Source: Candidatus Latescibacterota bacterium
GTDB taxonomy: Bacteria > Latescibacterota > UBA2968 > UBA8231
Direction: 5' to 3'
NCBI GenBank assembly: GCA_965219385.1
Contig: CBDCNM010000002.1
Span: forward strand, 964,639-1,028,638
Length of the DNA stretch: 64,000 nucleotides
The notes beneath the pieces are model-generated. The model had not been told where the DNA came from. It did not search any database and worked only from the letters and a program-made list of their open reading frames with translations. Below, one piece after another: positions 3,001 to 55,471 of this stretch. Position 1 is the stretch's first letter. Each line of letters starts with the position of its first letter. Both the position numbers and the translations under genes were made by a program.

Positions 3001-3247
3001 ACACCTCTTCACATGGCAGGTGAATCTCGTTGCCTGATGATTCCGCTTGCCCATTATCGAGCAATTCCTTGAGCAACAGCCATTGCGCTTGCGCATGATA
3101 TGCTTCCGTCGGTAGATCGGCAGCGTATTCAGTTGGCGAAAGGTGATCCAATGACGCAGTAAACCGAATGCCCGTCGGCGTTTCCTGCCAGTTGAATTGT
3201 GGCGATTCAGATTGACTTTTACGAAATAAATTTAGCATCACAATCAT
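1..3247 (-). CDS. zorD: Zorya ZorD: SNF2 helicase with C-terminal Mrr-like nuclease (3' end outside the window)
   Basis: Manual translation of a minus-strand frame that stays open to base 2. Its ATG overlaps the zorC stop (ATGA, 3244-3247). SNF2 motifs: LLADDMGLGKT, VIDEAQRIK, LTGTPVEN, AAGVGLNITAANHVIHY, WWNPAKEDQASDRVYRIGQ. Mrr-like end: GDKGADVIA...LLIQVKQ. Confidence 0.92.
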   Translation of the reverse strand, partial: MIVMLNLFRKSQSESPQFNWQETPTGIRFTASLDHLSPTEYAADLPTEAYHAQAQWLLLKELLDNGQAESSGNEIHLPCEEVCCLSSVEQQLLDLPEPYPFDIEVRSFGTLNQPEFRYNYQFLKPDQKPLHPERIGCLLRLTQEWKYLLTRAQFVLLEELDAFNAREAGDKNFQANLLEFSKIKGLANQTGAALDRYLHQEEVVAPKIVRLRLRESGDDIEIIPDVAGVDSEQFEAVFDKFPNPEPTYNISQPDGGRTRVLFQEQQRKALQTVKNYRRVSREQLAKIAEHPQEHFDPEIVELDPTDEIPSFSERVREIGIYQPRVYPFISPYKSEWIPGILVEDESGTQAKIQIKTDEECEKIKQAVDAAKQTGQKDLIWEGGKLPVADVEKHLSFIEKQLKRREKPSRSPDEKPETPVLIIGENIEDSDYVEQIPNARIEEPFRHLLEFPPNLKQEFKLLPHQEEGLAWTQQLREKEYSGGLLADDMGLGKTLQVLCFLEWHNAKYRSQQSQRQPYLIVAPIALLENWRAEYLKFFDKGALDFITLYGKELQTFKCESSDADDIQVPEIEGAERLQELRKQRGALNVKLLRVADLVLTTYETVRDFQLDLGLISWATVVIDEAQRIKTPGTLATNALKALKTDFRLALTGTPVENSLMDLWCITDFVAPGYLDSAKNFNRDFCRPLERPETDIRDLGEQIRKRIGVHLKRRLKTDILDDLPEKHIHVEECQREMSPKQAERYRSTLQFSQDSESTRPQSRNRILQVLHQLRDISDHPLLADSQWERVSTSEVIEQSAKLLVTVELLEKNRSVDEKVILFAERRKTQHLLAHVIREHFGLEEVSIVNGDTPGSTQRANSMRMSRQQSVDCFQAAPGFNAIIMSPLAAGVGLNITAANHVIHYSRWWNPAKEDQASDRVYRIGQTRPVHIYLPMATYPEFQTFDVILHGLLERKSRLSQGTLFPTEQAEVKPVDILTRLQEAQAKKENGPPLTIEDVDSFEPEYFEIFVAALFNKQGYRVELTPYSGDKGADVIAHQYEEEDGGLLIQVKQRQEDGKPGSAAVSEIVAAKPFYEEKYSTTFHP

Positions 3248-4617
3248 CTTTCTAACCGATAACTTCGCAACAGATCAATCTCAAGTTCCCATTCGATCCA
3301 CTCTGAAAAACGATCTTGCCAAGAATAACGCTCTGAGTACGTGTGTACCTCGCGATGTTCTGCCCGTCCTTGGTTACGTAATTTGCTCATGTGATACTCT
3401 GAGTCGCTCAAACTAAAGGGGCAGTTAGTGTTGTCATAGACATAGCAAGCCCCTGCTGTGCTAAACTCAACAAAGGTATAGCCGCCCATCTGAATGATGA
3501 AAGCGTGCTGATCCCTGCCACCGCCTTTTAGCGTTGCAATATTCCGTTTTTGCCCTTGGTAGTAGTGATCGCTTCTAAACAGATCTTCGGCATTTCTACG
3601 TAACACGGGACGACAGAAAGAGATATGTTCGAGATACGCCAGCCAAAATGCTTTTCGATAAGCAAACTTATGGTCGTTGCAGGCTTTGGCGACGACATCG
3701 AAGAAGAAGCGGAGGTCTTCTTTCGTAATCCATCTTGTAAAAATTTGTCGCGCCTTATCGGAAACATCACGCCAGTGCACATCTGCACCAACGATTCGCG
3801 GGTCTTTCCATTCTCGGAGGACATAGGATTGAACAGGCTGTCGCAAGTGCTCAGGCGCATCATATCCAAGTTGCTCAATGAATTTTGACAGAATAGCACG
3901 GCTGGTTTTATCATCGTTGTGTTTCTCGACAAACTTGACGACATCTGCAAAAGCCGCCGTATCACGGGGTTTGTTGAGGGCGACAAATGCTTCCGCAACA
4001 GCTCCAAAATAGCGATAACCTTGTGTATAGTCAGGCAATTCAAGATATGACCAGACATCCGATAGTTTTACTTGTGAGCGCAACAGATTCGTCGCAAGCT
4101 GGATCGTGCCGTTCTTATCGAAATACCACGCTATATTCGTTTTGAGTTTCTGGACAGATTTCCGAGTTCCATCGTAGTTGATCAGATGTTTCTTGACAAA
4201 CGCTCGGAGTATCCCTGCATTCGGTATATCCCACGCTTGCAACAAGGCATAGAAAACGCCGTGAAGTGCGCTGATGTGAAGACGGTTTTCAATTAGCTGA
4301 AGCGCGTCGCGTAGTTTCGTTGTGTCCACAATTCGATGCTTTTTATTTTCAGAGTAAGTCAACGCCCATCCAAGTTGTCGGATACGTTTGAGCGTACCAA
4401 ATTCCTTGGGGAGCCTGCTTGGGGGGGTATCTATGAAGAGGTAGTAAATCTGGCGAATATCTTCTTGATTGGGCACAGTTTGCATCCCACCACGATGCCG
4501 TTCCTCAATTTTTCTTAGCATCTCAAGAGTCTGTTGGCTGATTTTTGGCTTCGGCGCACGGTGAGCAAACTCGTCGGCATCAAATTTGGATTTAAGCAGG
4601 TCTTTCGCCGAGTTCAT
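3244..4617 (-). CDS. zorC: Zorya ZorC, EH-signature domain protein
   Basis: WKDPR...W motif, RKAFWLAYLEH, HAFIIQMGGYTFVEFSTAGACYVY; lies between zorB and zorD with 4-bp overlaps. Confidence 0.88.
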   Translation of the reverse strand: MNSAKDLLKSKFDADEFAHRAPKPKISQQTLEMLRKIEERHRGGMQTVPNQEDIRQIYYLFIDTPPSRLPKEFGTLKRIRQLGWALTYSENKKHRIVDTTKLRDALQLIENRLHISALHGVFYALLQAWDIPNAGILRAFVKKHLINYDGTRKSVQKLKTNIAWYFDKNGTIQLATNLLRSQVKLSDVWSYLELPDYTQGYRYFGAVAEAFVALNKPRDTAAFADVVKFVEKHNDDKTSRAILSKFIEQLGYDAPEHLRQPVQSYVLREWKDPRIVGADVHWRDVSDKARQIFTRWITKEDLRFFFDVVAKACNDHKFAYRKAFWLAYLEHISFCRPVLRRNAEDLFRSDHYYQGQKRNIATLKGGGRDQHAFIIQMGGYTFVEFSTAGACYVYDNTNCPFSLSDSEYHMSKLRNQGRAEHREVHTYSERYSWQDRFSEWIEWELEIDLLRSYRLER

Positions 4618-5330
4618 AATTTTCCTCCGATAATTTTGTCGAGTTGCTTTTCTGCGTTGGTCCGCACTCGAAACTCGACCCGCCGTGATTCTTCGCTATT
4701 TTGCGTACCGTCAGGATTGGCAATCAACTTGCTTGAAGATAAGCCGTTAGCGGTCAAGTACTGCTTTAGCCAGTCCCCATTTCCGCCAATTTTGGGTATC
4801 TGGAGCACATATTGAAGGACACTTCTCGTCCTGTCCTGTGATAACTCCATATTGAGGATATAGGCTTCTTCTGGACTGACCTCCTCAGACCATTCGCTTG
4901 AGGTATGTCCTTCAATCCGAATTTCCGCGATGTCATTGACGTATTTAGGGCGTTTTAAAATTCCGATGTAGCGAGGAAAAAAGGCATCCAGTATCTCTTT
5001 GAACGCTAACTGAACTTCGGCTTTCCCTTGTGCAAACAGCACTTTAGGCTCTCTGAAGCGAACAGAGAGTTTATCTCTATCCAAAACCGCCTTCCATCTC
5101 ACGAGGTCTTTTTCAAACTCTCTCTTGAGGTCGAGGTATAAATCTTCTCGTAACGACTCATATGTCTCGGCAATTTCCAACTGACGTTTCTCTTTTTCCA
5201 TCAGGTCCAACATGACGAAAGAGAGCAGGAGCACGAAAATCAGCAGTAATCCTGCCATTAAGTCGCCTAATGAAAGACTGAACGGGTTTTCATCTGCGAG
5301 CGTTTTAGATTTGGGAGGAGTTCTTCGCAT
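4614..5330 (-). CDS. zorB: Zorya ZorB, MotB/OmpA-like
   Basis: Single TM helix with the conserved Asp (SLGDLMAGLLLIFVLLL); OmpA-like motifs IRIEGHTS, NMELSQDR, SRRVEFR. Confidence 0.92.
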   Translation of the reverse strand: MRRTPPKSKTLADENPFSLSLGDLMAGLLLIFVLLLSFVMLDLMEKEKRQLEIAETYESLREDLYLDLKREFEKDLVRWKAVLDRDKLSVRFREPKVLFAQGKAEVQLAFKEILDAFFPRYIGILKRPKYVNDIAEIRIEGHTSSEWSEEVSPEEAYILNMELSQDRTRSVLQYVLQIPKIGGNGDWLKQYLTANGLSSSKLIANPDGTQNSEESRRVEFRVRTNAEKQLDKIIGGKL

Positions 5331-5336
5331 TACCGG

Positions 5337-7295
5337 TTAGTTCTCCTGCCTGTTTGTCAGTTTCTCTTTCATGTCAGTCAATTCCTCAACATTGTCCGAT
5401 AGAGCTTCAACGCTGCTAGCAAGTGCTGCTGATGCCTGGGTCAACTGATCGGAGAATTCACCGAGATACTTGTTGATCGATTCACGAGTGGAAACAGCAT
5501 AGGAATTCAAGCCCTTCTCTATTTCTCCAAATATGCCTTGCAACCCGGTGTCAATCGTTTGGAAGCGTTGCGCGAAGTCATCGAGCAACTGTTTCGACTG
5601 CACGAGGGTATCTTGAATCTGTTGTGTTGTTTCGCGGTTTGCCGTGAGATATTTTTCGTTTTCTTGCTTAAACGCATCACTCGCCTGTATTAGTTGTTGT
5701 CCCGCGCTTTCAAGCTGCGTTGCCCCTGTCGTCAACTGTCTTGAAAATGCTTGCGTAGTCTCGATTAGTTGGCGGACACTCACTATGCTTGCGTTCACCT
5801 GCTGCAACATTTCGCGTCCCATTGTGAACGTTTGCTGCGAGTTGGTGATCTGTTTATCGAAGGCTTCGATCTGCGGTTGCAGCCGTTGTAAGATGCTGCC
5901 GACGCTCTGCTCGGCATTTTGGACGCTGTCACTGAGTTGAGCAGCAGCTCGCTCAACCTGTTTGCTCATTTGTTCTCTCGCCCTTGCGGATTCTGCTGCT
6001 GTCTGAGCAGTGATCTCGCCAATTGCTTTTTGCTGTTGATCGAGTATCGATTCAAAATCTGCCATCCGCAGGGCAAACTGCTCGTTAGTTCGACTCGCTG
6101 CCGAATCCAATAGATTTTGCACATTGAAGGCAATTTGCCTCATCTTCTCATTTACTGCGTCTGCTGTCTCAGATTGAGCAGTAATCGCTCCTTGGTTTGC
6201 TTCTTGGAGAGCTTCAAGCATTTCGCCGAACATCTTTTTCATCTGATCCGTCTGTTCTTCAGACGTTGTGTCCAGCAATTGACGGGTCTGCTCGATCTGG
6301 TTTTGGACGCCCGTTATCATCTCTTTCATCTGATCGGGTAAATTCTTCAGACTTTGAGCCGCAGCACCTACCGTTTGGGCGAGTTCCTCCATTTGTGTTA
6401 CTGTTGACGAAGAAAGTGAATCTTGGAATTCCTTTATGAGTTTTCCGATAGCGTCTTCAGAAGACTCTTTTTTCTGTTGGCGCAACTCTTCTACAGTTGT
6501 ATTCAACTTATCAAGGCTTGGCGACATCGCAATTTTAATCTTGTCCGCCAAATCCGTCGAAAATGATTTAAGTGCCGCTGTCTGTTGTTCAAGTTCAACT
6601 TCTTGCTGTATCGCAATTTCTTCTTGCGTTGTCAGCGTAAATAGCCGGTCGAGTGCGCGTTGCAAATTCGCGATTGTCCGACTGACACTACTGATGCGGC
6701 TTTTCTCCACCCAGTTGAACAAGAGCGAAGTCAGCATTCCCCAAACGGAGGTCACAAACGCAGTCGATACACCCGATAGGAGTTCTTTAATAGCACTCTG
6801 AATTTGGGCTGTCTGCGTGAAGTCAATGCCAGAAAAGGGGATCAGCCCCCAAACCAATCCGACAAATGTACCAAGAATCCCGAAGCCAACCAACAGCGCA
6901 GGTACGCTATTCCAAAATCGGAGGTTCAAATGTTGCCCCAACAGGCGATCCTCGCTAAAGAAAAGCGATGCCTCGTCCGTTTTGTACACCATCTCCTGAT
7001 TTTCGCGTTGACGTGTAATGAGCGAATCTTCAAACTCTTGCCACGCCTCAGCAAGTTCGCCGTTGCGATTAAACTTTTCTTTCAATTCCTGCTTAATAGC
7101 CGGTTGAGCGGGTCTATCGTATCCACTCACTTCTTTGGTTAAACCGTTAATCAAGCGGCGGCGACGGAAAGTTATCACAGAAAAATAAATTCCCCATAGG
7201 AGGAAAGCCGCTCCAATGACGTAAGCAAAAAGGTCTGAAATCTGGTCGTTGGGAGCGTCTTTCCATGGAAGCAGCAGATTGAAAAATTCGGTCAT
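5337..7295 (-). CDS. zorA: Zorya ZorA, MotA/ExbB-like channel with long helical tail
   Basis: Three hydrophobic segments including GILGTFVGL and GVSTAFVTSVWG, then about 450 aa of Q/E-rich coiled coil. GAGGAG RBS precedes the ATG at 7295. Confidence 0.92.
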   Translation of the reverse strand: MTEFFNLLLPWKDAPNDQISDLFAYVIGAAFLLWGIYFSVITFRRRRLINGLTKEVSGYDRPAQPAIKQELKEKFNRNGELAEAWQEFEDSLITRQRENQEMVYKTDEASLFFSEDRLLGQHLNLRFWNSVPALLVGFGILGTFVGLVWGLIPFSGIDFTQTAQIQSAIKELLSGVSTAFVTSVWGMLTSLLFNWVEKSRISSVSRTIANLQRALDRLFTLTTQEEIAIQQEVELEQQTAALKSFSTDLADKIKIAMSPSLDKLNTTVEELRQQKKESSEDAIGKLIKEFQDSLSSSTVTQMEELAQTVGAAAQSLKNLPDQMKEMITGVQNQIEQTRQLLDTTSEEQTDQMKKMFGEMLEALQEANQGAITAQSETADAVNEKMRQIAFNVQNLLDSAASRTNEQFALRMADFESILDQQQKAIGEITAQTAAESARAREQMSKQVERAAAQLSDSVQNAEQSVGSILQRLQPQIEAFDKQITNSQQTFTMGREMLQQVNASIVSVRQLIETTQAFSRQLTTGATQLESAGQQLIQASDAFKQENEKYLTANRETTQQIQDTLVQSKQLLDDFAQRFQTIDTGLQGIFGEIEKGLNSYAVSTRESINKYLGEFSDQLTQASAALASSVEALSDNVEELTDMKEKLTNRQEN

Positions 7296-7343
7296 ATCTC
7301 CTCTGATTTGCAAAAGAGTAACGTTACTTATTGATTCGCCCGG

Positions 7344-8111: not shown

Positions 8112-8714
8112 CTAGTCGGGAGCGGCGCCGGATTTTTCCCAGGGCCGGATAAAGGATTCGGGCTCGACGCCCAAAGCGTCTGCCACTCGGTTGATGTAGT
8201 TGAAATAGCCGATGATCTGGACGGCGTCGTGAATGCCGCGATCATCAAAGCCGTGCTGACGCAATTGGTCGATATCCTCAGCGGTTGAGGCCTGCGGTCG
8301 CCGGGTCAGTTTTTCGGCAAAGGCGCATAGGGCCCGGTCGGCTGGGAGCAGATCGGCCCGGCGCCAGTCCGCGGATAACTGATGCACCAGCCGGTCGGCC
8401 GGGGCCCCTTCCGCAACGGCAAAATCTCCGGCGACCTCAGCCCGGAGGTCGTGGGCGTGGCCGCGTATTCAGTACACGCAATGGTTCGTGGCCGAAACGA
8501 CCACGGCCAGCATTTCGCGCCGGCCCCGGCTCAGGGGCGAAGGGCCGTACATGAGGGCTCTGTAAAAATCCATTGAGCTCTTCAGGGCCCGGGGGTTGGG
8601 GCTCATAATGGAGACAATGCCCCAAATGCGCCCAGCCCGGGCCCGGGCGGCTTCGTACTGCTTTTTGAGCAGGCCGGTGGCTCGTTTTAGGGGAACGATG
8701 TCTATATAGGGCAT
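8112..8714 (-). CDS. AhpD/CMD-family peroxidase-related selenoprotein (200 aa; Sec at TGA 8469-8471)
   Basis: ORFs 8469-8714 and 8112-8387 are in the same frame with no other stop between them. Readthrough gives NHCVY-U-IRGH (CxxU in place of CxxC) and a typical C-terminus GYFNYINRVADALGV. Confidence 0.85.
8432..8451 (-). promoter_or_regulatory. Putative bacterial SECIS hairpin
   Basis: CGACCUC-CGGGCU-GAGGUCG begins 17 nt after the UGA, with G at loop position 2. Confidence 0.65.
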
Positions 8715-8829: not shown

Positions 8830-9723
8830 ATGCCCGTTCGCTTCGCCTTCCTCACTGACACCCACCACTACCCCGACGCCCCCGAGGACTACGGCGCCCC
8901 CAAGATGCTTACCCGCAGCCAGGAGGTACTCGACGCGATCCCCCCCGCCCTCAACGCCCAGGCTTTCGACTTTGTCGTCCACGGCGGCGACTTCCTCTGC
9001 GGCGGGTCGTCCTTCAACCTGCCCACCGAGACCTATTTGCGCTCGATTGACGAGGCGGCTACGGCCTTCGCACGGATCGAAGCCCCTTTCTATTCAATCC
9101 CCGGCAACCACGACTGCGACGCCCAGAGCGGGTCCTTCGACGGTTTCGCCGCCCGCTTCCCCTATCCCGACCCGCTGACCGTCGTCGATGCCGCCCCGCG
9201 CCTGCGGCTGGCCCTGGCCAACGTCTTCCACGCCTGCGATGTCTTCGAGAAAGGGACCGGCGTCTGGACCGACGCGCTGGACGAGGCCCTGCGCGCTGCC
9301 GCCGCCCAAGCCCTGGCCGACGGCTGCGCCCTGCTGCTCGTCCTCCACACCTGGATTTTGCCCGACTTCGACCGGGACCGAGGCGTGGTCGCAGGCGCGG
9401 CCCGCCTTGTCCAAACCCTCGACGAAAGCCCCGCCCTCGTCGCCGCCTTCACCGGCCACCGCCACATCAACCGCATCACCCCCCACCGCGACTACCTAAT
9501 CGTCGATACGGCCTGCCTGATCGGCTTCCCCTTGGAGTATCGCTGCGTCGCACTCTCCGCCGATGGCTTTTTCAAGACGAGCTTCCACACCCTAAACCTG
9601 CCCGATCTTCTCCAAGATTCCTACAACCGCTCGACGCCCGAGGAGAACCGGGTCTGGGAAGGCCACATCCCCGACCGGGACGCGGACATCCTGCTGCCTC
9701 GGCTCAGGGCGCTGTGGGGTTGA
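8830..9723 (+). CDS. Calcineurin-like metallophosphoesterase
   Basis: Motifs TDTH, HGGD, PGNHD, LHT, GHRH. Confidence 0.9.
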   Translation: MPVRFAFLTDTHHYPDAPEDYGAPKMLTRSQEVLDAIPPALNAQAFDFVVHGGDFLCGGSSFNLPTETYLRSIDEAATAFARIEAPFYSIPGNHDCDAQSGSFDGFAARFPYPDPLTVVDAAPRLRLALANVFHACDVFEKGTGVWTDALDEALRAAAAQALADGCALLLVLHTWILPDFDRDRGVVAGAARLVQTLDESPALVAAFTGHRHINRITPHRDYLIVDTACLIGFPLEYRCVALSADGFFKTSFHTLNLPDLLQDSYNRSTPEENRVWEGHIPDRDADILLPRLRALWG

Positions 9724-9967
9724 GCTTGCCCTCGTCCTCCGCGTTCCCGCCATTGCGTTGGCCGCAGAGGCCGTCGCATACCCGGTTCAAAATTTCGTCA
9801 TCGACCGCCCAACCGCAAGTAGCCAGTCCCCCACCAGCGTGGCCGGAACTCGACCACTGTGAATCGAGACCGACCTGACCAACGCCGCGCCGGCAAACTC
9901 GGCTGCCGAGAACGGGCACGGCGAAGAACAGGGAAAGGAACAACCGCTGCGGCATCCGAGGCTGCCT

Positions 9968-10117
9968 AAATCGCCAAATCAAACTCTTGCCGATTCTGAT
10001 ACTTGCCTTGCTCCCTTTATCGGCATTATTGGGGACACCGGCCTTATTTTGTCGCAACACCTCGTCGCAAATCTGGCGATGATATGCGCGTCTCAGGTCT
10101 TCGATCTTCCCTGTCAT
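9968..10117 (-). pseudogene. 5' remnant of an NgoMIV-family type II restriction endonuclease
   Basis: RRAYHRQICDEVLRQNKAGVPNNADKGSKASIRIGKSL resembles the NgoMIV N-terminus from memory; similarity ends after about 50 aa. Confidence 0.65.
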
Positions 10118-10245
10118 TGCGGTTTCACCAATCCAACCACGTACTCTTCGTGCATCCGCTCCTCAATCTGTGAGTGTCGTTTATTGCCCCAGCGCGCCGG
10201 CATCATGCGCTTGTCACGATCCAAGCGGCGGACGCCGATTCCGGC
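10114..10245 (-). pseudogene. 3' remnant of a DNA methyltransferase
   Basis: GIGVRRLDRDKRMMPARWG...IEERMHEEYVVGLVKPQ* parallels the C-terminus of the methyltransferase at 15598; ATGA overlap with the NgoMIV-like start. Confidence 0.55.
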
Positions 10246-10281: not shown

Positions 10282-12159
10282 TCAGTCCACCATCAGTAAC
10301 TTACATGGCGTCGGATCAATGCCGATGAGCAACGGTCGGGTAAAGGTTGTAAATGACCCGATGGCCTGTCCAGGAGCTAGGGACGGTAACTGTCGCCAAA
10401 GCCCTTCGTTGATACCCCCTATTGAGCGTTTGAGCCTACTGACTACCGTCGCGTCACTCACTTTGTGCAGAATCCAGTTGTTGATCAGGCCCAACACCTC
10501 ATCGGGCAAGTGCTGCGGTAATTGCGTGATGAAGACCAGCCCCAGCCAGCGCTTACGACCCCTCCGAGCAATGCGGGCAACCTGCTGAAAAAGCACCTGC
10601 ATCTTCTGAATTCGCTGCGCCGAGAGAAATTCGTGAGCCTCTTCGATAAAGATGGTCGTTGGTGTTGGTCTCTCTTTTCTATCAGCCGCCTGCTTATAGT
10701 TGATTTCCTGCTGCTTCTGCACCCCGCGCAGGATCTCCGCAATAACCAGATTGTTGATCTGAGGCGAATCGGTGTCGCTCAGATCCAAGATATTCACACG
10801 TCCCGGTTGCAACATCTCTGTGTAATTGATCTGTTCGGCTTTATCAGAATCAAAAATTTTCAAACGCTTAATTTTGCTCAATTTCCCCATCAGTGCCCGC
10901 CAACTGGGTAAACTGTCGGGCTTTTTGTCGGCATTAATGAGCTGTTTTAGCTGATCGCGGTTTTCTCGGAGAAAGTCTGTTTCCAAATAGGGGTCCGTCT
11001 CGTCTTTAGCCTTGATGGCGTGGATCTGTCTGACCACGTCATACAGACAGGTCAACGTCATTTTATGATAGCCTGTCTCCATTTCATCAAGTTCAAAAAG
11101 TTGTTGCCTCTGTTGGTCGTTGGCTGGCCAGATCTTCAGTTTTTCCAAAATCCGCTTCGTTATGTCATACGCTTTGAAAAAGCGCCCGCTCTGGGCTTCG
11201 TTCAGTTCGAGAATCTCCTCCAAAGCATAGGGCGAAAGGGCACTGAAGCGCAGCGAGAACGGTTTCACATCGGCATGCTCCGGATTAGCGGCATCTCGGT
11301 CTACGAGATGGTAAATATGGGTATTGCCGACTCCCTCGGGATTTAGATTTTGCTGTGTTAGTGCCTGAATCATGCGGTTATCCGCAGTCGGTTCGTCTAT
11401 AGCGCAGTATTCACCCTCTGTATCAATGAGGACGATTGCCATATTCTCTTTTTGCGCTTTGGCAATCAGACCCGATACAGTCGTCGATTTACCACCGCCA
11501 GTTGTGCCCAAAATCCCTAGGTGTCTCGGAAAAATGCCTTTACTATCCGCAGGCACACACACTCCCAGATCGTCAAAGCCATCAGCTAAACCCAGGCGAA
11601 GACTGCCCTGAATCGACAGCACCTTAGCCGTTTCGTCTCTATCCAGCGTAAACACCGGACTATTGGGCTTGGGTCGGCGACGCGGCGGCAGCAAGGTACC
11701 GTTATCATCATCCAACTGCTCGCCAATAATTTCGACCTGGACGCGACCGTGGTATTTAGGCATGAGAAGACCACCCTGCACAGTGCTTACGACCATCGGC
11801 GTAGCATCGGCCCTTAATCCATCGGGTTCGGCGAAAGGTCCTTCGGCTACTGCCCCCATATAGACGCGACTATCGGCTAAGCTCTTGATACGCACTAGTG
11901 CCTGACTTGGAAACACGTCTATATTCTCAGGTGGTAACAATACGGTGAGGGTTCCGTCCTTGCTAGTGGGCGTATCGAACATCGTCCTTCCCACCGACTC
12001 TTCGTAACCGGGTGGAGGTGTGTAAGCTCCACCAGCGTCTATACTGTCCTCATCAATAGCTTGAAGCACCTCTTGAGGAATGTCCATTATATTTTCCTCC
12101 ACATGTCCGTCCCCACCTTGGGTGTACATATCGCTTCCGTTTTTAGGTTCCATCTTCAT
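10282..12159 (-). CDS. herA: HerA-family ATPase (DUF87/DUF853)
   Basis: N-terminal HAS-barrel-like region; HLGILGTTGGGKST (Walker A), IFIEEAHEF (Walker B), ARRGRKRWLGLVFITQ (arginine finger/sensor). Confidence 0.9.
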   Translation of the reverse strand: MKMEPKNGSDMYTQGGDGHVEENIMDIPQEVLQAIDEDSIDAGGAYTPPPGYEESVGRTMFDTPTSKDGTLTVLLPPENIDVFPSQALVRIKSLADSRVYMGAVAEGPFAEPDGLRADATPMVVSTVQGGLLMPKYHGRVQVEIIGEQLDDDNGTLLPPRRRPKPNSPVFTLDRDETAKVLSIQGSLRLGLADGFDDLGVCVPADSKGIFPRHLGILGTTGGGKSTTVSGLIAKAQKENMAIVLIDTEGEYCAIDEPTADNRMIQALTQQNLNPEGVGNTHIYHLVDRDAANPEHADVKPFSLRFSALSPYALEEILELNEAQSGRFFKAYDITKRILEKLKIWPANDQQRQQLFELDEMETGYHKMTLTCLYDVVRQIHAIKAKDETDPYLETDFLRENRDQLKQLINADKKPDSLPSWRALMGKLSKIKRLKIFDSDKAEQINYTEMLQPGRVNILDLSDTDSPQINNLVIAEILRGVQKQQEINYKQAADRKERPTPTTIFIEEAHEFLSAQRIQKMQVLFQQVARIARRGRKRWLGLVFITQLPQHLPDEVLGLINNWILHKVSDATVVSRLKRSIGGINEGLWRQLPSLAPGQAIGSFTTFTRPLLIGIDPTPCKLLMVD

Positions 12160-12220
12160 ATTCTCCTTGATTGATTAAAAACGACAGGTTTGCTCCAAAT
12201 TGAGGTACGCTGGAAACTCC

Positions 12221-12522
12221 TCAACATGACCAAGGATAGGTATCACCCTTTCTGCGATTGTTTTCCCATTGAAGAGGTTGAAGATTATTAAGCTCGTCTG
12301 AGCCACCTTTGGCTGAAGGTATAATATGATCAATTTCCCAGCCGTATTTAGAGTCTGTATTGCCATGTTCAGAATATTTCATAACATGGCCACACATATC
12401 CCAACGCCAGATCTTAGGATCATATTCTGTACCGTTCTGAACAGTTATCCTCCCCTATCCCAAACAGCACGCTTTGTCTCTTCCTCTGCACCATAAAATG
12501 GGTATCTATATTGATATGACAT
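12221..12522 (-). pseudogene. HNH endonuclease (~100 aa) with a 1-nt frameshift at a G4 run (12452-12455)
   Basis: AGGAGA RBS, then MSYQYRYPFYGAEEETKRAVWDRG; the -1 frame continues ...GWEIDHIIPSAKGGSDELNNLQPLQWENNRRKGD. Length 302 nt. Confidence 0.85.
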
Positions 12523-12561
12523 GTGTTTCTCCTTTTTTGTTTTACGTGTACCGCTTGGTGA

Positions 12562-13821
12562 TTAGCGTCGTGTGCTACGTTCAGCTAAGTAGCGGAAGGG
12601 CTCACCGGCTTCAGAGTAGGCTGCTTGGGCAGACGACATGAAAGTATCGGCTCCAAAAGACGACTGGCATAGCCGATCAGCCAAGTCGATGAGCATGGGG
12701 AACCCCCTGTGTTCTTGGAGTACACTGTCGGCCATGGCGATGAGGGCCGCTTCGTGAACACGATCAATGTGTGCGAAGAACATCTGAGGGGGCGACAGCT
12801 TGGAGACTCGGTACATGGCAATGGCAATTTTGGGTCCGCACTCCTCGACAAATTCTTCGACCGCCCTCCTGAGACCGACCCACTCTTGGCCACGGTAGTG
12901 TCCACTGGCGATCCGATCCAGTGTGTCCTTATACGTGTCGATAATGGCGTATTCGGACGGCTGCAAAGCGTTGCCGATGGTTAACAACTCGCGTGCGTTA
13001 GTCGTGCTGGGGATAAATACAAATCGCTGATGGTCCAAAACTAGCCGCCTCAACAACTCTATACTGCTGCGCAGTAGATCCGGCATGCCCGAACCTGTAA
13101 CCAGTTCGTAGGGTGTAGGCACCCCATGCCCCATGCGCCAGATGGCTTTCGACCGATCCAACAGTACCGCCCGCTCAGCATAAGCCATTATACCCCGCCG
13201 GGCCAAGCTGCTTATCCGGTCACGCTGACTTTCTTGATCTACCGCACTACGCTGCCGCCGCTTCTCCAAAAGCTCCAAGGTCTCGTCCACCGGATTCTTA
13301 CCAGTCGTACGCAAATCGCGACGAAACATCCGATGGACCCAAGATCCCTGGTCTCCTTGGTAGGAAACCAAGCAGACGCCAATCTGGGTGATAGTCATCG
13401 GCAAGGTATCGTGCGTGACTACCGTACCGTCGCAGGCTTCCACTCCACCGTTAAACAACAGCTTCGCGTGGATGTCCTCCAATTTCTCGACCGATGCCCT
13501 ATATACACCGGCCCCAGGAGGAGCACCTGGACGACCTTTGAGCCTAGGAAATATTTCAGCGCGAATTCTTTTCGTATAGCCGTCCTCTTGGCGGACAGCC
13601 TCGGCAATCTCCCGCTCTAAGCGCTCGTACATCTCGACAAGATCAGCCCCCGGGGACCAAGTAGCGAGATCCAGCGTCTCGGACAGTTTCTCTCCATGCG
13701 CTTCTTCATATTCATTGCTCGTCAGGAGAGGCTGATCTTCGGACAAGTTTTCTGGCAATTCATCCGTCACCCTATCCATGCTCGATTTCATGGGCTCTTC
13801 TCCTCGGTTTTCTGCGGCCAT
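12562..13821 (-). CDS. Divergent NurA-like nuclease
   Basis: EACDGT (compare NurA DGS) and C-terminal RGFPMLIDLAD (compare GYPxxLxxAH/D); upstream of herA. Confidence 0.7.
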   Translation of the reverse strand: MAAENRGEEPMKSSMDRVTDELPENLSEDQPLLTSNEYEEAHGEKLSETLDLATWSPGADLVEMYERLEREIAEAVRQEDGYTKRIRAEIFPRLKGRPGAPPGAGVYRASVEKLEDIHAKLLFNGGVEACDGTVVTHDTLPMTITQIGVCLVSYQGDQGSWVHRMFRRDLRTTGKNPVDETLELLEKRRQRSAVDQESQRDRISSLARRGIMAYAERAVLLDRSKAIWRMGHGVPTPYELVTGSGMPDLLRSSIELLRRLVLDHQRFVFIPSTTNARELLTIGNALQPSEYAIIDTYKDTLDRIASGHYRGQEWVGLRRAVEEFVEECGPKIAIAMYRVSKLSPPQMFFAHIDRVHEAALIAMADSVLQEHRGFPMLIDLADRLCQSSFGADTFMSSAQAAYSEAGEPFRYLAERSTRR

Positions 13822-13874
13822 CTATTCATCTATTCCCATTATTCCCATCAAAAGAGCCCAGTTCGACAAAAAAT

Positions 13875-14621
13875 TCATCCGTTGAGCCATTCCTTAAAAG
13901 AGCCGGCAGGGCGCTGGCTCATCACCAGCATGTGCCCGTAGCCATGAGCGACCGTTTCAGGCAAGCCAAATTCCTGTCGCAGTGTCTGAGCCACCCGCTC
14001 ACAGGCTGATGTCTCCTTCCACGGTATAGCCCGAGCCTGTAATCGGCTGAGCACAATCTTCCTAGGTGCCAACAATTCCAGTGCTAAACGGTCGGCCCGA
14101 TCCTCGGCGTCTAGAATACGCAGGTGCTCTACTTGGCCGCTAGGCGACCGATCCATAAAGTGCGTGAATGTCTGCCAAGATACACCCTGAAGCAGACCAC
14201 CTAGCCGTTCTTCAGGAGTAGGGGAACGCCGGCCGTCGAGTACATCTCGAATCTCTGATCCTAACATGGAGAGTGCATGCTCTCGCGGCTGCCAGTAATC
14301 GAGCATGAAGTGGGATATTTCGTGTGCTAAGGAGAAACGCCGTTCGTCTTCTGAGTCGCTGCCATCAAGAAAAATCATCCCATACCCGGCTTTGGCTAAA
14401 AGACAAGCCCGCAAACAGCGGTAAGCCACTGTAAAAGGGGGAATAATACCCTGCTGATCCAACCACTCCGTCAGCGAAGACACTTCTAGGCGAGGAAGTT
14501 TGATCAGGGCTACGGGCAATGCCCAAGATAGGGGTGCTTCCAAGGATCGAGGAAACGACTCTGGTCGGCCAGCTAGGCTCCAAAATCTCTCTGCCAGCTC
14601 GACTACATCCCAGTTTCTCAC
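13875..14621 (-). CDS. ImmA/IrrE-family metallo-endopeptidase
   Basis: RRFSLAHEISHF (HExxH) and AEDRADRLALELLAP. Confidence 0.88.
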   Translation of the reverse strand: MRNWDVVELAERFWSLAGRPESFPRSLEAPLSWALPVALIKLPRLEVSSLTEWLDQQGIIPPFTVAYRCLRACLLAKAGYGMIFLDGSDSEDERRFSLAHEISHFMLDYWQPREHALSMLGSEIRDVLDGRRSPTPEERLGGLLQGVSWQTFTHFMDRSPSGQVEHLRILDAEDRADRLALELLAPRKIVLSRLQARAIPWKETSACERVAQTLRQEFGLPETVAHGYGHMLVMSQRPAGSFKEWLNG

Positions 14622-14995
14622 GCCTTGTCCACTTCTCTTTCTTCTTTGCGATCCCGGGCCGCCATAAGCATTGCGCCTTGTCGCTCCCCGGCACCTTTCT
14701 GTAGTGCGGCAAAAGCAGCCACTTCGCGCATGAGGCGTACAAGCCGATCAGGGCTACAGGCACCAAACCCAGCAATGCGGCGGACCTGCTCTTGAAATTG
14801 GTCCCCTTGGTCGTCAGGCTGGTGACATAGGGAAAGCCGGTTGATGTGTTCTATATCGCACTCCAAGAATTGGGCCAGACCTTGTTCATCTATATCATGG
14901 AAAGCCCGATATTGAGCCAATGACCAACCGACAAAAAAACGATCAGTATTCGCCTTTTCCACAAGTTTCTGTAGATATTTTACCTTATTACTCAT
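14618..14995 (-). CDS. Small hypothetical protein, XRE/HTH-like (possible repressor or anti-sigma)
   Basis: LAQYRAFHDIDEQGLAQFLECDIEHINRL has XRE-like spacing; C-terminal LMAARD; overlaps both neighbouring genes. Confidence 0.55.
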   Translation of the reverse strand: MSNKVKYLQKLVEKANTDRFFVGWSLAQYRAFHDIDEQGLAQFLECDIEHINRLSLCHQPDDQGDQFQEQVRRIAGFGACSPDRLVRLMREVAAFAALQKGAGERQGAMLMAARDRKEEREVDKA

Positions 14996-15590
14996 AGCCT
15001 AAAATATCTCCATGGTGTCTTTGCAGGCGTTTTTTAATGCGATCCTTGTTCCTTTTTACTTCGGTACGCTGCTCGTCTTCGGGCAGTGCCTCCAGCTCCA
15101 GAACCTGAGCGAACACCTCAGTGGCCCGTTCTCCCTCAATTATCAGCTTGACTACCGCCCGGTCCTTGGGATCATCAAACAGTGCATCTAATGCATCTTG
15201 CATCCGTTCAGAGTCTATTTTTTCCTCTAATTCACCTGTTCTAGTATTCCCACCTCGTTCATCAACTTCGACAAACTCTAGCTGAATTTCTTTTTTTTGG
15301 CGGCGAGCGATTTTAGCCAGAGCATTCTTCAGATCTCCTTCAGCCGCCATTACCAGAAAGCCGAATAAACCGCGTTGGGTCGGATCAAACTGCTCTGGAC
15401 GCTTGCTATAGTCCATCAACGCATCCGCAACGACTTCGGTAGGCAGATCAGGGTCTCGCAGATTGGGGTATTTATGGGACAATTTTTCGACCAACGACTC
15501 CATTACCTCTTCGGCAAGCTCGGCAAATGCCGTCAAATCGCCCTCGCACAACCGTTTGTGAATGTCTGTATACCAAGCGTCATCGAGCAT
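14988..15590 (-). CDS. ECF sigma-70-like protein
   Basis: 200 aa; GDLTAFAEL, region-2-like QFDPTQRGLFGFLVMAA, region-4-like DALDAL...DRAVVKL...RIKKRL. Confidence 0.65.
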   Translation of the reverse strand: MLDDAWYTDIHKRLCEGDLTAFAELAEEVMESLVEKLSHKYPNLRDPDLPTEVVADALMDYSKRPEQFDPTQRGLFGFLVMAAEGDLKNALAKIARRQKKEIQLEFVEVDERGGNTRTGELEEKIDSERMQDALDALFDDPKDRAVVKLIIEGERATEVFAQVLELEALPEDEQRTEVKRNKDRIKKRLQRHHGDILGYE

Positions 15591-15597
15591 AAACTAT

Positions 15598-16884
15598 CTA
15601 CTTCCGCAAAGCTAAGATGAGTTCCCGTCTCATTCGTTTACCCATAGAGACTTGCCCATCCACTAACTGAGGCGGCGGCAAGGAGCGATGTGCTACGTTT
15701 ATGTGACGCATAGCACTGCCGACCAGCGTAAGACCAACATGCTCTCCTATTTGCGAAAAAATTTCTTCTGCATCCGTCTTTTTGGCATTGATAATAGTCG
15801 GCCCCACGACAAACAATCCCACGCCGTCCGGTTTTAATACGCGTTTGATTTCGCCAAATACCTTGTGCATGTCGGACAAATATCTCTTTACATGCGCTTT
15901 TCTGCGTTCTTCTTCGATTTTTTTGTCTAATCGATCCTCTATAACAGAAGGTAAGCCGTCGCTATGCCACAGCCCGCATTCAGTACCCACCATGGTGCTG
16001 CGCAGCCAGCGTAATTTTTCCAGCGGGTAGTTCATCCACAGAAGGGAAAATTTATGCCCTCGCATATAATCTATGGCATTGAGATAAGGTGGCGAGGTTA
16101 GCACTAAATCGATGCTTGAATCTTCAATAGGAAGGCAGCGGGCGTCCCCATGTTGGATAGTGCTGTGCGTCGTCAACTGCTTATCGTCGACAAAAGGCAA
16201 CCGTTTGACGGCCCTGTCAAAACGTTGCACCCAACCAGCAAATGGCTCTACAATGGTCTTTCCCAACTTTTTGTGTGGACGGGATCGAGAAATATCCAGC
16301 GCCCAACTCGCACCGGCCTTCTTGGCGATAATTAGACTAGAGAAGATAGCCCAAGCCAGATTTTGTTCGGAACCTTCGCTCTCTTCGCCGATGCTCCGCC
16401 GTAAGGCCAATAGCTGCTCTTGGGACTTTGGGGGAAACCAGAATTCAATAAAATCTCGATCCTTTTCCGGTAGTTGATTGAGCTCCTCTTCTAGACTTGC
16501 CTTCTTTTTTTGTAGCGTTTGTTTAGCCCGACCCAAGACTCGTTCTTTCAGGTCATGTAGGCGACGAGAATCAAAATTTTGGATGGTACTATCTGCAATG
16601 AGTACGGCCAGCGGGTCTCGATCAAATCCATATACTGTCCGACCTAGCTGCCGTGCAGCAATTAGGGTCGTTCCAGAGCCGGCCATAGGGTCGAGGACGA
16701 CAGCTTCCGACTCTGTTATTCGACTAATCAAATGCCTTGCTAAGGAGATGGGCATGCGAGCAGGAAATGGGTGAAACCAAGAAGGCTCACGCTGCTGTCC
16801 CTTTGCCTTCGACCCAGAGACTTCGCATATAGCGTTCAATATTTTGCGGTCACTATAGACAGAACTGAACAATTTCAACTCCAC
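15598..16884 (-). CDS. DNA methyltransferase (amino-MTase, probably N4-cytosine)
   Basis: HPFPARMP, SAM-binding DPMAGSGTT followed by catalytic TSPPY; start codon uncertain. Confidence 0.88.
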   Translation of the reverse strand: MELKLFSSVYSDRKILNAICEVSGSKAKGQQREPSWFHPFPARMPISLARHLISRITESEAVVLDPMAGSGTTLIAARQLGRTVYGFDRDPLAVLIADSTIQNFDSRRLHDLKERVLGRAKQTLQKKKASLEEELNQLPEKDRDFIEFWFPPKSQEQLLALRRSIGEESEGSEQNLAWAIFSSLIIAKKAGASWALDISRSRPHKKLGKTIVEPFAGWVQRFDRAVKRLPFVDDKQLTTHSTIQHGDARCLPIEDSSIDLVLTSPPYLNAIDYMRGHKFSLLWMNYPLEKLRWLRSTMVGTECGLWHSDGLPSVIEDRLDKKIEEERRKAHVKRYLSDMHKVFGEIKRVLKPDGVGLFVVGPTIINAKKTDAEEIFSQIGEHVGLTLVGSAMRHINVAHRSLPPPQLVDGQVSMGKRMRRELILALRK

Positions 16885-16915: not shown

Positions 16916-18273
16916 TAAAGTTTGGACCAGACATAGGGTCTATCCAGCCGCGATAGCATAGTGTGAGTTCATTTTTTCGTTGTTTTCTTTTTCCGTACTA
17001 CTCAGCGAAAATAGGACGTATCGTTTCTGCCATCGCAGGTAGTTTGGGATGATACCAGTGGATGTTCATCTGGGCCAGCCCTTCTTCTACCGCCGGAAAG
17101 GTCCAAAGGCCGGCCAGGCGATCAACGGGGTCAGACTGGTCGCCACGAAGGACAGCAGGACACTACGATTGATGGACCGCTCGGAGCGCACCTGATACGG
17201 ATCGAAGCCCAGTTCCTCCTTGGTATCGCGCATGTTGGTTTCAAAGCCCCACCGCAATTTGTAGTAGCGGAGGATGGTTTCGACCGATAGACTCAGATCG
17301 GTGGTGTAGACCATAAAGTAGCGATAGGGTTTGCTTTTTTTAGCTCGGGTGCGTACCACCACTAGATGCACCGGCTGGGGACACATGCGGGTGCGCACCT
17401 GTTGGTGGGCCACCGACAGCGGCTTGTCAAAACTGGGGACCGCTAGATCGGTATAGGTCCACTGCTCGATGTGGACACGTCGACCATAGATTCTCTTCCG
17501 TCCTTTCTTAGGTTGCTCGGCCGGACCCGGTCGATAATAGAACGCTGCATTTTTGCGGGCGCGACATAACAGATGAGGCCCTTGGGCTAATAATTCCTTG
17601 AAATACGTGCGGTTATTGAACCCCCGATCAAAGATGATCAAACGGGCCGGCAGCACCCAAATGATCGAGGCAAACCCGGCCAAGGCCGAACCGCCCAAGG
17701 CGGCCGGATCCAACCGGTGGACCCACAGCGGGAACAAGCGGCGTACATCCCATCCAGGCCCAACAAGCCCAAGCCGGCAAACTGGTGGCCCCAATGGAAC
17801 TTGGACTGATTGGTATTGCGTTTACGATAGCGATGATTGCGGAAAAAGGGTAAGCCAAACTGCTTTTTACCGGTCTTGATGGCGTGGGTATGATCATAGA
17901 CATAGGCCCATTCATCCATATACTCCAGCAGCAAACCGGTCAGGCGCTGGACCACCATGGTTTCGTCCCATTTTCCGCGACGGAGAAACTTAACCAGCGA
18001 CCAGTAGCGGCTGTTCGGCTGACCGGCCAGGTAGATCCCACTGACCGTGTGCCGGCTTTCGCACCGGAGCACGCCCCACACATAGGCGTAAAACAGGGCG
18101 AAGTTTTGACTACCGAACAGATCGCGAAATGCATATACTATCGTATCAAGCAGGGTGCCCGTTGGCATGACCATCCTCCTTCTTTTTCTTGGTCGGAAAA
18201 CAAGGTAGGATAATCTAACGGCCCCTGCCATTTTTTTACAACCCTAAACGGACTTCAAATTGTCCAAACTCTA
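16916..18273 (-). mobile_element. Decayed IS701/IS4-like element with frameshifted DDE transposase
   Basis: ORFs 17638-18231 and 17087-17794 with YDHT, FDRGF, YKLRWGFETNMRDTKEELG; ends TAAAGTTTGGAC and GTCCAAACTCTA form an 11/12 inverted repeat. Confidence 0.8.
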
Positions 18274-53351: not shown

Positions 53352-55471
53352 CTAAGTACACGACAGTGATCTAAGTTGCAGTGCAGCCCTGATTTAGGTT
53401 TATTTGTTCGACCAAGATTGCAACGAAACCCTAAATACAGGAGCTGCACCATGCTTATACATACGATAAAAAAAGCCCTTACGCAAGAGAAGGTACCCCT
53501 CACGCACCACCGTATCGATCTGATCAGCCGCTTGGTGTGTGCGCTCCTCCAAGTTCGTTCCGTCAATATGAAAAAACTAGCGTGTAGCCTGTCGGGCCTG
53601 GCCCAAGTCGATAGTCAATATCGTCGCCTACAGCGTTTTTTCAGCAGTAAGGTATCCCCCGCGGTGTTTACCCCGTTGATCGTATCTAAGCTAGTTCGCC
53701 CCGGCCAACAACAGGTGTTGGTCCTGGATCGTACGCATTGGAAGCGGGGTCGAACCGATCTGAACCTATTGTGTTTAGGACTAGGCTGTGTACGATAAAA
53801 GGTTTTTGAGCCAAATACGGATGAAAGCGAGTATGATCATCGCCTGATACCTGTCGGCGTGTTTTTCATATCGGGTGGCAATGCGTCGGTTTTCTTTGAG
53901 CCGTCCGATGAGTCGTTCCACCACATTGCGCTGCCGATATAAGTCCTTGTCGAATCCGATGGCCTCAGGGGGATACTCCCCCTGCCGATTTTTTCGATGG
54001 GCGATCACGGGCTTGGTTCGCCGTTGGCGCAGTTTCTCGCGGATGGATTGACTATCATAGGCTTTATCACCGGCCAGGGCTTCAAACCGGGTGCGCTTGG
54101 GACCGGGTTTGCCTCCAATGGCCACTGAATCGAGCAAGGCGTCTACCTGGGTGGATTCATGCTGCTGACCCGGGGTTATGGTAACCGTGATGGGCTTGCC
54201 CGCCCCTTCACAAAGGACATGAATTTTGGTGGTATAGCCGCCACGGCTTTGCCCAAGCCCCTGTTTTTGAAGGCTTTCTTCACGGCTTATGGAAACACCA
54301 TTTATGTTTTTTTTGCCCCGGCGGCTGCTTTATGCGCCCGAACGATGCTCCCATCGAGGGCGGCGAACGTAAAATCGATCTGATCCATATGGCGCGCTTG
54401 GGCTTCTAACGCATCCAGGATCTGTTGCCATAAGCCTTTTTGTTCCCAACGACGAAACCGGTCGGCCCCCGTGCTCCAAGGGCCGTACCGGGGGGGCAAA
54501 TCGCGCCAAGGCGCGCCGGTGCGTAAAATCCAGAAAATGCCGTTGAGCACTTGGCGATGACTCCGATAAGGGCAGCCCGGTTTGCCCGACCGTTCGGCAG
54601 GTAACAACGGCTTTAGCAGGGCAAATTCTTCATCGGTTAAGTCGTAGCGGGCCATCGGTATCCCCTCCTTCGATTCAATGGTTGAAAGAGAGTATACCAC
54701 GTCCCAATACTATTTCAAGCAATTATCGTACACAGCCTAGTCTACCAAGGCGGGTCTATTCCGTTGGCCTGTCCGTCGTTGCAAAAGCCGGGCAACTCCA
54801 ACACCGAGGAACGAAAACACCTCCTGACTCAGGCGCTGGCCTACCTCGATCCCGGCTCGTGCGGTCTAGTCGCCGATCGCGAATTCATCGGTCGAGACGG
54901 GTTTACCTTTCTGCTGGAGCAACCCATCGACTTTGTGATTCGCCTGCGGGGCAACCCCTGGATCAGGCTCGACGAGGACCGCTTACGTTATTGGGCCGCC
55001 TTCACCCAGCGCCTGCGACGAGGCACCACCCGGTTCTATCCTGAGACGGTCCTCTATGACGGGTTGACCCTCCATCTGGTCTGTCAGCGCCCCGCTAGGG
55101 GCGAGGTAGTCCTGCTGATCACCAACCGCACCGACCTGAAGCAGGTGCTCGCTCTGTATGGCCAGCGCTGGTCCATTGAAACGGCGTTTGGCTTTTTGAA
55201 GTCCAAAGGGTTTAATGTGGAAGACACCCATCGGACCCACCCTCCACGCTTGCACCTGCTGAGGGGCCTGCTCGCCTGGACCCTCCTGTGGGCGCTACGG
55301 GTGGGTGAGCAACTCCATCAGAGCAAACCCATCAAACGCAAAAAACATGGACGCCGAGCCATCAGTCTCTTTCGACTAGGCCTAGACCCACTCACACCGA
55401 TCACACACCAGGCCCGAGACCCACTTAAACAGGCCCAACGCTATGGACCTCTTTTACTGTCGTGTACTTAG
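53352..55471 (+). mobile_element. IS4-family element interrupted by an IS5
   Basis: 16-bp perfect TIR CTAAGTACACGACAGT; transposase halves LDRTHWK...LCLG and VADREFIG...YGQRWSIETAF...LSCT. Confidence 0.9.
53784..54737 (-). mobile_element. IS5-family (IS427-like) element, two ORFs joined by a -1 frameshift
   Basis: TIR GGCTGTGTACGATAA inside a duplicated (C)TA(G). orfA 54302-54655 has WRDLPPRYGPWST and DGS; A8C slippery run at 54306-54314; orfB has GDKAYDS, RNVVER, RIATRYEK. Confidence 0.92.

Follow-up and report, generated by a model that had tools for sequence, protein, structure and literature searches.

What kind of system brings together a DNA methyltransferase, a sigma factor, a metallopeptidase, a nuclease and a HerA translocase in one co-oriented run of genes, and how might it be switched on? 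The locus that raises this question occupies positions 10282..16884 of a 64,000-nucleotide stretch of DNA, referred to here as the window, from a Candidatus Latescibacterota bacterium (assembly GCA_965219385.1, contig CBDCNM010000002.1, positions 964,639 to 1,028,638 of the forward strand). An earlier note, made from the letters of this DNA, had described it as seven co-oriented genes constituting an inducible nuclease-translocase defence module, with methylation marking self DNA. The locus contains a six-gene cassette consisting of a DNA methyltransferase (MTase), an ECF-like sigma factor, a small helix-turn-helix (HTH)-like protein, an IrrE/ImmA peptidase, a NurA-fold nuclease and HerA, and its gene order and a private promoter-like motif recur in related loci. 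The reading favoured here, to which we assign as a whole a probability of roughly 0.45, is that of a sigma-switched, protease-triggered NurA-HerA cassette directed against invading DNA.

Composition, conservation and spread of the cassette

All six genes lie on the minus strand. The gene for the MTase (428 amino acids (aa); 15598..16884) is separated by 7 bp (15591-15597) from that for the sigma factor (200 aa; 14988..15590), which overlaps by 8 bp (14988-14995) with the gene for the small HTH-like protein (125 aa; 14618..14995), and this in turn overlaps by 4 bp (14618-14621) with the peptidase gene (248 aa; 13875..14621). The genes for the NurA-fold nuclease (419 aa; 12562..13821, a start at 13791 giving 409 aa being likelier) and HerA (625 aa; 10282..12159) follow. 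Six of the seven genes named in the earlier note were found where it had placed them, with the same coupling of the first four; the seventh, an HNH endonuclease gene, is not an intact gene. Its assignments of the MTase, the peptidase and HerA were borne out by Pfam matches above cut-off, that of the sigma factor by profile matches, and that of the NurA-like protein, which has no family match in Pfam, PADLOC or NCBIfam, by fold comparison; the HTH assignment was retained as a weak HigA/HipB-like, Xre-like resemblance. As had also been noted, the block is lower in GC content (0.506) than the flanking core genes (0.636 and 0.620), and the value for the whole genome is 0.598.

Is this arrangement peculiar to one genome? 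Related loci were gathered from genomes with the NurA-like protein as seed (the best 80 of 104 found, to which counts out of 80 refer unless the held-out set is named) and from metagenomes with the sigma factor as seed (80 of 106, which serve as the held-out set for the motif matrix described below). In the NurA-seeded loci, the sigma factor was present in 75/80, the HTH-like protein in 74/80, the peptidase in 75/80, HerA in 75/80 and the MTase in 58/80, in the same order, and missing core genes (the five without the MTase) were nearly always explained by contig ends. The reverse test, counting sigma-seeded loci with sufficient room, gave the HTH-like protein in 66/67, the peptidase in 44/46, the NurA-like protein in 38/40, HerA in 30/31 and the MTase in 29/33. 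The genes for the sigma factor, HTH-like protein and peptidase are usually translationally coupled in the related loci, with a median gap of 91 bp before nurA. The order is kept in unrelated taxa, a check that the earlier note had proposed, and 14 phylum labels appear in a quick tree of the sigma factor.

The spread of the cassette is patchy, likely reflecting horizontal transfer. The NurA-like protein was found in 0/40 relatives of the host, the sigma factor in 32/401 genomes sampled from the phylum of genome G041, and 2434 NurA homologues were recognized among 8000 scored candidates. The HTH profile matched 2/401 genomes of a second phylum, a figure that is uninformative at 10 candidates scored per genome. 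The closest relative is locus L002, with a NurA-like protein 93% identical to that of the window. A pattern scan of viral sequences returned 69 matches, with the cassette in one of them (L092); this contig of a viral collection (IMGVR_UViG_3300050336-type) carries the sigma factor, HTH-like protein, peptidase, NurA-like protein and HerA.

The HNH endonuclease gene (PF01844; 12221-12522) is split over two frames and lies in an insertion of about 390 bp (12170..12560, minus strand; GC content 0.41). It is a passenger, because it is frameshifted and missing from L002, where nurA is joined directly to herA, and from the related loci (tblastn, 0/80); the split frames and these absences rule it out as a member of the cassette. 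A sequencing error at the frame break was also ruled out, since the contigs of four runs from three studies contain no indel there. One low-depth contig (run X4) skips the whole insert.

A private promoter-like motif and the candidate sigma switch

The sigma factor was recognized most clearly at the level of its family. The family profile matched RpoE (2q1z, E 0.0023) and six further sigma factors (E < 0.3), and Sigma70_r2 was detected in 29/69 members (E<=0.01), although the window protein by itself gave no such match. The predicted structure, with a predicted local distance difference test score (pLDDT) of 88, has two helical domains with a disordered linker (residues 108-120) between them. 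The second of these domains may correspond to region 4, a weak NCBIfam match extends over residues 43-190, and the Atlas gave an ECF cluster at 0.96.

The gap before nurA contains a bipartite motif composed of TGTCGAACTT, 12-13 free bases and then (C/G)GGAAT, located in the window at 13838..13868 on the minus strand. By seed pattern, it was found in 55/76 loci, one of the 55 being poor. The copy before the window's nurA is the best-scoring site of its genome, though part of the training set, and 59 sites of this genome score at least 15. A motif matrix built from nurA-upstream sites only located a second copy inside the sigma gene (15243..15273, minus strand; codons 106-116), oriented towards the genes for the HTH-like protein and the peptidase. 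This internal copy occurs in the same frame in 60/76 sigma genes, at aligned codon 107 in 55 of them. In the held-out metagenome loci, the internal copy was recovered in 65/80 and the nurA copy in 38/41, with 1 match in 280,108 coding positions as control. As regards a possible wide chromosomal regulon, 6/8 exact matches in five other genomes fall in the cassette, one before what is presumably cas5c and one inside a gene that we take to be pyrB-like.

Is the internal copy a by-product of conserved amino acids? At the motif, Val107 is encoded by GTC in 59/61 cases and Leu by CTT in 31/46, versus 30% and 16%, respectively, elsewhere in sigma genes. Because of this codon bias, which rules out a by-product, selection acts on the DNA of the internal motif. 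In addition, the -10 variant TGTA was present in both copies in 6/6 loci with this variant, and spacer length also tends to change together, the loci with TGTA or GGTA variants being kin. A copy lies just upstream of the sigma gene in 8 loci, the usual position for ECF autoregulation, and directly before herA in 4, whereas none was found before the MTase gene (0/56 loci). Two boxes at a fixed spacing, read in one direction and following the starts of genes, are what an ECF promoter would look like, and the motif is very probably the promoter recognized by the sigma factor of the cassette. The term inducible in the earlier note is consistent with such a private promoter-like motif. Use of the two copies as recombination sites was ruled out by the differing spacers, the lack of a conserved recombinase and the copies at other gene starts. 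A region-4-only product made from the internal promoter was unsupported, as a Met in the following stretch occurs in only 23/69 sigma factors.

Variants of the layout were also seen. In a Chloroflexia group (L033, L035, L040, L058 and L059), a DHH/CBS/DRTGG gene separates the peptidase gene from nurA, additional genes separate nurA from herA, and the motif is located upstream of the sigma gene; this is possibly a domesticated form. A BrnT-like gene directly behind the nurA motif was found in L031 (9445-9888, with a Pfam match) and L052 (4175-4570, of the same cluster).

How might the sigma factor be held in check? The small HTH-like protein, a predicted anti-sigma factor and protease substrate, gave weak HigA/HipB-like matches only, with no Pfam, PADLOC or above-cut-off NCBIfam match; its Cys57 is invariant and a C-terminal LxAARD is conserved. 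The peptidase is an IrrE/ImmA/CapP-type zinc metallopeptidase (PF06114 above cut-off; capP model E 2e-7) that matches IrrE, PprI and CapP structures, and its zinc-site residues H100, H104 and E173 are invariant in 69 aligned copies, E101 being kept in at least 90%. Proteins in which the HTH-like protein and the peptidase are fused (L057:8756-9862, L240:795-1895 and P0272) keep LxAARD or a one-residue variant of it. A C-terminal -LxAA resembles the ClpXP degrons of ssrA and RseA. By analogy, the peptidase has about even odds of cutting the small protein at LxAA|RD, before Arg (between A113 and R114): CapP is described as cutting CapH before Arg, at F82|R83 (10.1101/2022.04.27.489752), and cleavage of CalpT as exposing a C-degron (10.1101/2024.05.08.593097).

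The HTH domain also occurs in a different setting. In L221 (711-5588), a sigma factor of the same family, whose gene carries the internal motif, precedes the same HTH domain (probability 99.2, 93 columns). This domain continues into a hydrophobic membrane-like helix and a further domain; the next gene encodes a TPR-CHAT protease, and no IrrE peptidase, NurA or HerA was found within 7 kb. L229 contains the same fusion of HTH domain and membrane helix in a truncated locus. In both small proteins LxAARD is lost, the match ending before the motif. By analogy, a membrane anti-sigma factor would be arranged in this way, and L221 would represent reuse of the sigma-HTH switch with another protease. 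Overall, the small HTH-like protein of the cassette is rather likely to be an anti-sigma factor, judging from these sequence comparisons.

Could it instead be a CapH/ImmR-like repressor that blocks the motif until cut, with the same output? The weak Xre-like HTH resemblance, the repressors known as partners of this peptidase family, and the 24 CBASS loci reported to contain capH, capP and a sigma gene together (10.1101/2022.04.27.489752) all agree with such a role. However, the only conserved motif seen consists of two parts with a fixed spacer and has a direction, no palindrome was noticed in the intergenic sequences by eye, no formal search being made, and the HTH domain is also found joined to a membrane-like helix immediately behind the sigma factor. 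Moreover, capH and capP are described as divergent from their operon, whereas all genes here are co-oriented. A repressor is accordingly considered unlikely.

The nuclease-translocase pair, the methyltransferase and the candidate output

The NurA-like protein was identified by fold. Its AlphaFold model matched archaeal NurA, namely that of S. solfataricus (2ygk), with Z 11.3 and a root-mean-square deviation (rmsd) of 4.7 over 209 aligned residues, followed by 7f6d from D. radiodurans (Z 8.1), chain G of the TdpAB complex 8wet (Z 7.8), 9x1l (6.7) and 1zup (6.0); the top five rows of the fold search are NurA or NurA-like. Sequence searches of Pfam, PADLOC, NCBIfam and the PDB gave no match. Residues D131, E216, H232, E239 and D365 are kept in 80-81/81 copies (D131 in 80/81, E216 and H232 in 81/81), and D382 in 66/81. 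Judged by motif, His232 presumably stands at the place of NurA's second Asp, and the active site may therefore be a variant. In a single member, P0271 (552 aa), the small HTH-like protein is fused via an acidic linker to the full NurA-like protein.

HerA contains the DUF87 and HerA_C domains (PF01935, PF05872), with an intact Walker A (GTTGGGKS) and Walker B (IEEAH) that are conserved across the aligned copies. The closest solved relative is archaeal HerA 4d2i (E 2e-21). Against the named equivalogs HerA_antiphage, helicase_HerA and CedD, the protein scored 50-83 bits where the cut-offs are 600-970, and it is not a member of these. nurA stands beside herA in 75/80 loci, the misses being at contig edges. 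HerA-NurA of T. kodakarensis is reported to destroy both strands (PMC12977600).

The first gene encodes a DNA amino-methyltransferase (PF01555, E 7e-21; PADLOC MTase_II), carrying DPMAGSGT as motif I close to the N-terminus and TSPPY in mid-protein, both conserved in 59 aligned copies. It is likely of the N4-cytosine type, solved N4-cytosine MTases being among its best matches. Among 75 loci, 47 have the gene upstream and co-oriented, 6 have it divergent and 5 downstream; 7 lack it despite sufficient room, and 10 could not be resolved. The earlier proposal that methylation marks self DNA is weakly supported: the MTase is intact, and its gene usually opens the cassette, but the place varies and 7 loci are without it although there is room on either side. 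Protection of host DNA from NurA-HerA by methylation is tentative, and is the weakest step of the model. In TdpABC, phosphorothioate reportedly gates TdpAB. The cassette offers a test of base methylation as a comparable gate, and of whether bacterial NurA-HerA serves defence or repair.

These parts can be assembled into a proposed mechanism. A host promoter would first supply the MTase and sigma factor; the sigma factor would then drive the HTH and peptidase genes, as a negative feedback, and nurA-herA. The delay would resemble the one seen when restriction systems enter a new host. The small HTH-like protein would hold the sigma factor until cut by the IrrE-type peptidase, with DNA damage or single-stranded DNA as the candidate trigger. 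For CapP, single-stranded DNA is described as binding between the peptidase and GAF domains (10.1101/2022.04.27.489752, 10.64898/2026.05.16.725639). The cut would leave -LxAA, and the inhibitor would be destroyed because this degron-like C-terminus resembles a ClpXP degron. HerA would then feed DNA ends into NurA, phage or plasmid DNA would be degraded, and methylation would spare host DNA.

Is defence the output? The first one or two open reading frames (ORFs) after herA were scanned with PADLOC (E 1e-8) in 61 of 64 loci with downstream ORFs, a set of 106 of the 173 listed ORFs trimmed to 450 aa, and were compared with 40 control stretches at even spacing, of which the host supplied 20 and seven carrier genomes the other 20. 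Matches were found in 22/61 loci (33 ORFs) versus 5/40 control stretches (6/79 ORFs), an enrichment of defence genes that the earlier note had suggested looking for; by locus, Fisher p is 0.011, a value overstated by kinship of the loci. The matches include cas genes, Thoeris-like, SEFIR, Tiamat, AbiEi, QueC/TGT and several generic helicases. Motif copies also precede some of these neighbours. In L061 (13084-15881), a copy lies ahead of QueC, TGT and SMODS genes, which we take to be a type IV CBASS. In the Calidithermus genome G045, a copy at the end of cas3 (L160:1501-1527; G045:C5:142005-142031) lies about 270 bp ahead of a cas5c-like gene and is co-oriented with the cassette, 11 kb downstream. 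It is on balance probable that HerA-NurA degrades phage or plasmid DNA and that in some hosts the sigma factor also induces adjoining defence genes. The fullest version, a widespread immune system and master switch in which an IrrE-type damage sensor cuts an Xre-like anti-sigma factor at LxAA|RD, a degron is exposed, and the freed sigma factor, with a feedback promoter lying in its own coding sequence, induces a methylation-gated NurA-HerA shredder and any adjacent CRISPR-Cas or CBASS operons, is doubtful.

Cas genes of several type I subtypes lie directly after herA in 9/61 loci versus 1/40 controls (p 0.08). This neighbourhood, the motif copy ahead of cas5c in G045 and the CASP-sigma sites reported at cas1 (PMC10028731) would suit a helper of CRISPR adaptation, in which NurA-HerA makes prespacers from invader DNA and the sigma factor induces cas genes. 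But 52/61 loci, and likewise that of the window, have no cas gene among the tested ORFs, the p value is as given, and such a helper is very improbable.

Other neighbours direct attention to repair. Metallophosphoesterase and AAA pairs of Mre11/Rad50 type follow herA in L016, L024 and L027 (3/61), with the Mre11-like genes of L024 and L027 preceded by their own motif copies, and UvrD-like or DEDDh genes follow it in L014, L025, L043 and L046. The same switch might thus have a repair output, whereby damage activates the peptidase and the sigma factor induces NurA-HerA, in some loci along with Mre11/Rad50-like or UvrD-like genes, to process broken ends for recombination. Consistent with this, the closest solved HerA is an archaeal repair HerA, the best fold match is an archaeal NurA, and IrrE-DdrO is reported to control repair genes (PMC12828697). 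Repair leaves the linked MTase unexplained, however, and fits poorly with the patchy occurrence (0/40 host relatives; 32/401 genomes), the low GC content and the defence neighbours; we regard it as improbable.

Several points nevertheless weigh against the defence cassette as proposed. The peptidase falls short of CapP's length by about 40 aa, and its matches cover the peptidase motif only, with none to GAF. The small protein resembles Xre HTH proteins and could be a CapH-like repressor, the membrane-anchored variant is known from two loci, one of them truncated, and in P0271 the small protein is fused to the NurA-like protein. The co-varying motif copies come from kin. The NurA-like model has a pLDDT of 68, with residues 132-173 unreliable. 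The MTase is missing in 7/65 classifiable loci and divergent or downstream in 11. We know of no NurA-HerA that reads methyl marks. The excess of defence genes is moderate, includes generic helicase matches and involves kin loci that are not independent, and the Mre11/Rad50-like pairs fit repair too.

In the window, the cassette lies within a larger island. As described earlier, it is located between a weak NgoMIV-like restriction enzyme remnant downstream (9953..10117, minus strand; PF09015 E 0.005, below cut-off) and an IS701-like transposase upstream (two ORFs, 17087..18231, minus strand; NF049999 E 1e-30 and 1.5e-13, below the curated cut-off), and Zorya zorA-zorB-zorC (3244..7313, minus strand; PADLOC and NCBIfam), a separate system of the same island, begins at a distance of 3.0 kb. 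The NgoMIV remnant and Zorya were rejected as partners, NgoMIV and ZorA-C being present in 0/80 related loci. Within 1-7313, a long SNF2-like ORF runs beside zorA-zorB-zorC from about 3247 to the window start, and is presumably zorD. Two small co-oriented ORFs at 8112-8714 together resemble a split peroxidase-related CMD/AhpD protein, with a Pfam CMD match in the first only. Repeated elements at the island edge are suggested by two short stretches, 9633-9720 and 10067-10245, where contigs from other sequence variants accumulate in 4/4 runs. A 235-aa ORF with a TTG start at 54764-55471 (minus strand) has the same size as the IS701-like ORF 17087-17794 and is possibly another copy. A scan for sigma-70 promoters and terminators gave chance-level results.

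Relation to known systems

Both halves of the cassette have known analogues, and the gene set itself is apparently undescribed. The literature searched gave no description of it, though the regulatory triad may overlap with the sigma-linked CBASS loci mentioned in Lau et al. No full named system was found with PADLOC-DB 2.0, in which the HerA, capP and MTase_II matches belong to different systems, and the PADLOC and NCBIfam scans proposed in the earlier note likewise matched no named system. Above cut-off, the window's NurA, sigma factor and HTH-like protein are recognized by none of the Pfam, PADLOC or NCBIfam models, so the cassette is invisible to current annotation, despite a sigma factor in 32/401 sampled genomes of one phylum. 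Cultured carriers include Calidithermus chliarophilus (L076), Thermalbibacter longus (L072) and Agaribacillus aureus (L042). The sigma factor and its promoter might be put to use as an orthogonal switch.

What, then, distinguishes the effector half? Archaeal and Deinococcus HerA-NurA (2ygk, 7f6d, 9x1l, 4d2i) share the folds of both subunits and the adjacency of nurA and herA, whereas the cassette shows no sequence-level NurA match and adds an MTase and its own regulators. Unlike the archaeal herA-nurA-mre11-rad50 operon, the window contains no mre11 or rad50, and such pairs occur in 3/61 loci. Other HerA systems are described in PMC10853773 and PMC12839542. TdpABC (An et al. 2025, cited in PMC12914056 and PMC13223576; PDB 8wet) likewise combines a DNA-modifying gene with a HerA-like ATPase in a restriction-modification-like logic; the cassette HerA matches TdpA with E 1e-4, and the NurA-like model the second TdpAB subunit with Z 7.8 and rmsd 9.4. 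However, TdpABC relies on the phosphorothioate enzyme TdpC, in place of which the cassette has a methyltransferase, together with the sigma-HTH-peptidase switch and the private motif. No extra conserved gene in the place of TdpC was found among the flank clusters, no TdpC profile being run.

ICETh1 of Thermus thermophilus, with Tth111II, NurA, TdtA and an N4/N6 methylase, resembles the cassette in that a single operon on foreign DNA encodes NurA, a HerA-like ATPase and a PF01555 methylase of about 410 aa (PMC5365140). As nurA and tdtA are reported to be required there for transjugation (PMC5365140), the same three enzyme classes in one operon might point to DNA donation. The cassette differs in having the regulatory triad and in lacking a conserved type IIG restriction enzyme or integrase. 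No conserved restriction enzyme or transfer gene was found among the flanks, the NgoMIV remnant being in 0/80 loci. The commonest flank clusters among the 80 loci and the window are Cas3-like (9 loci), Cas1-like (8) and a third family (6) that is presumably integrase-like. DNA donation is highly improbable.

The regulatory half is closest to two groups of systems. CapH-CapP, together with DdrO-IrrE as well as ImmR-ImmA (10.1101/2022.04.27.489752, 10.64898/2026.05.16.725639) similarly pair an HTH-like protein with an HExxH...E peptidase, occur as fusions and are linked to defence operons. In contrast to them, the HTH and peptidase genes of the cassette are co-oriented in all loci that contain them and always coupled to a sigma gene, and the cassette shows no GAF match and has a directional promoter-like motif and a NurA-HerA cargo. 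In CalpL-CalpT-CalpS (10.1101/2024.05.08.593097) and Csx29-Csx30-CASP-sigma (PMC10028731), a protease is described as cutting an anti-sigma factor, a degron as being exposed, and an ECF sigma factor as inducing defence genes from sites within the locus. The cassette has an IrrE-type metallopeptidase (PF06114) instead of a SAVED-Lon or CHAT protease, CHAT being found only in the variant L221; it needs no type III CRISPR and has a different inhibitor domain. If the proposed model is true, CalpLTS and CASP would be joined by a third immune cascade of the protease/anti-sigma/sigma kind. This one would not depend on type III CRISPR and would draw on the IrrE/CapP family, for which the literature examined describes repressors as partners.

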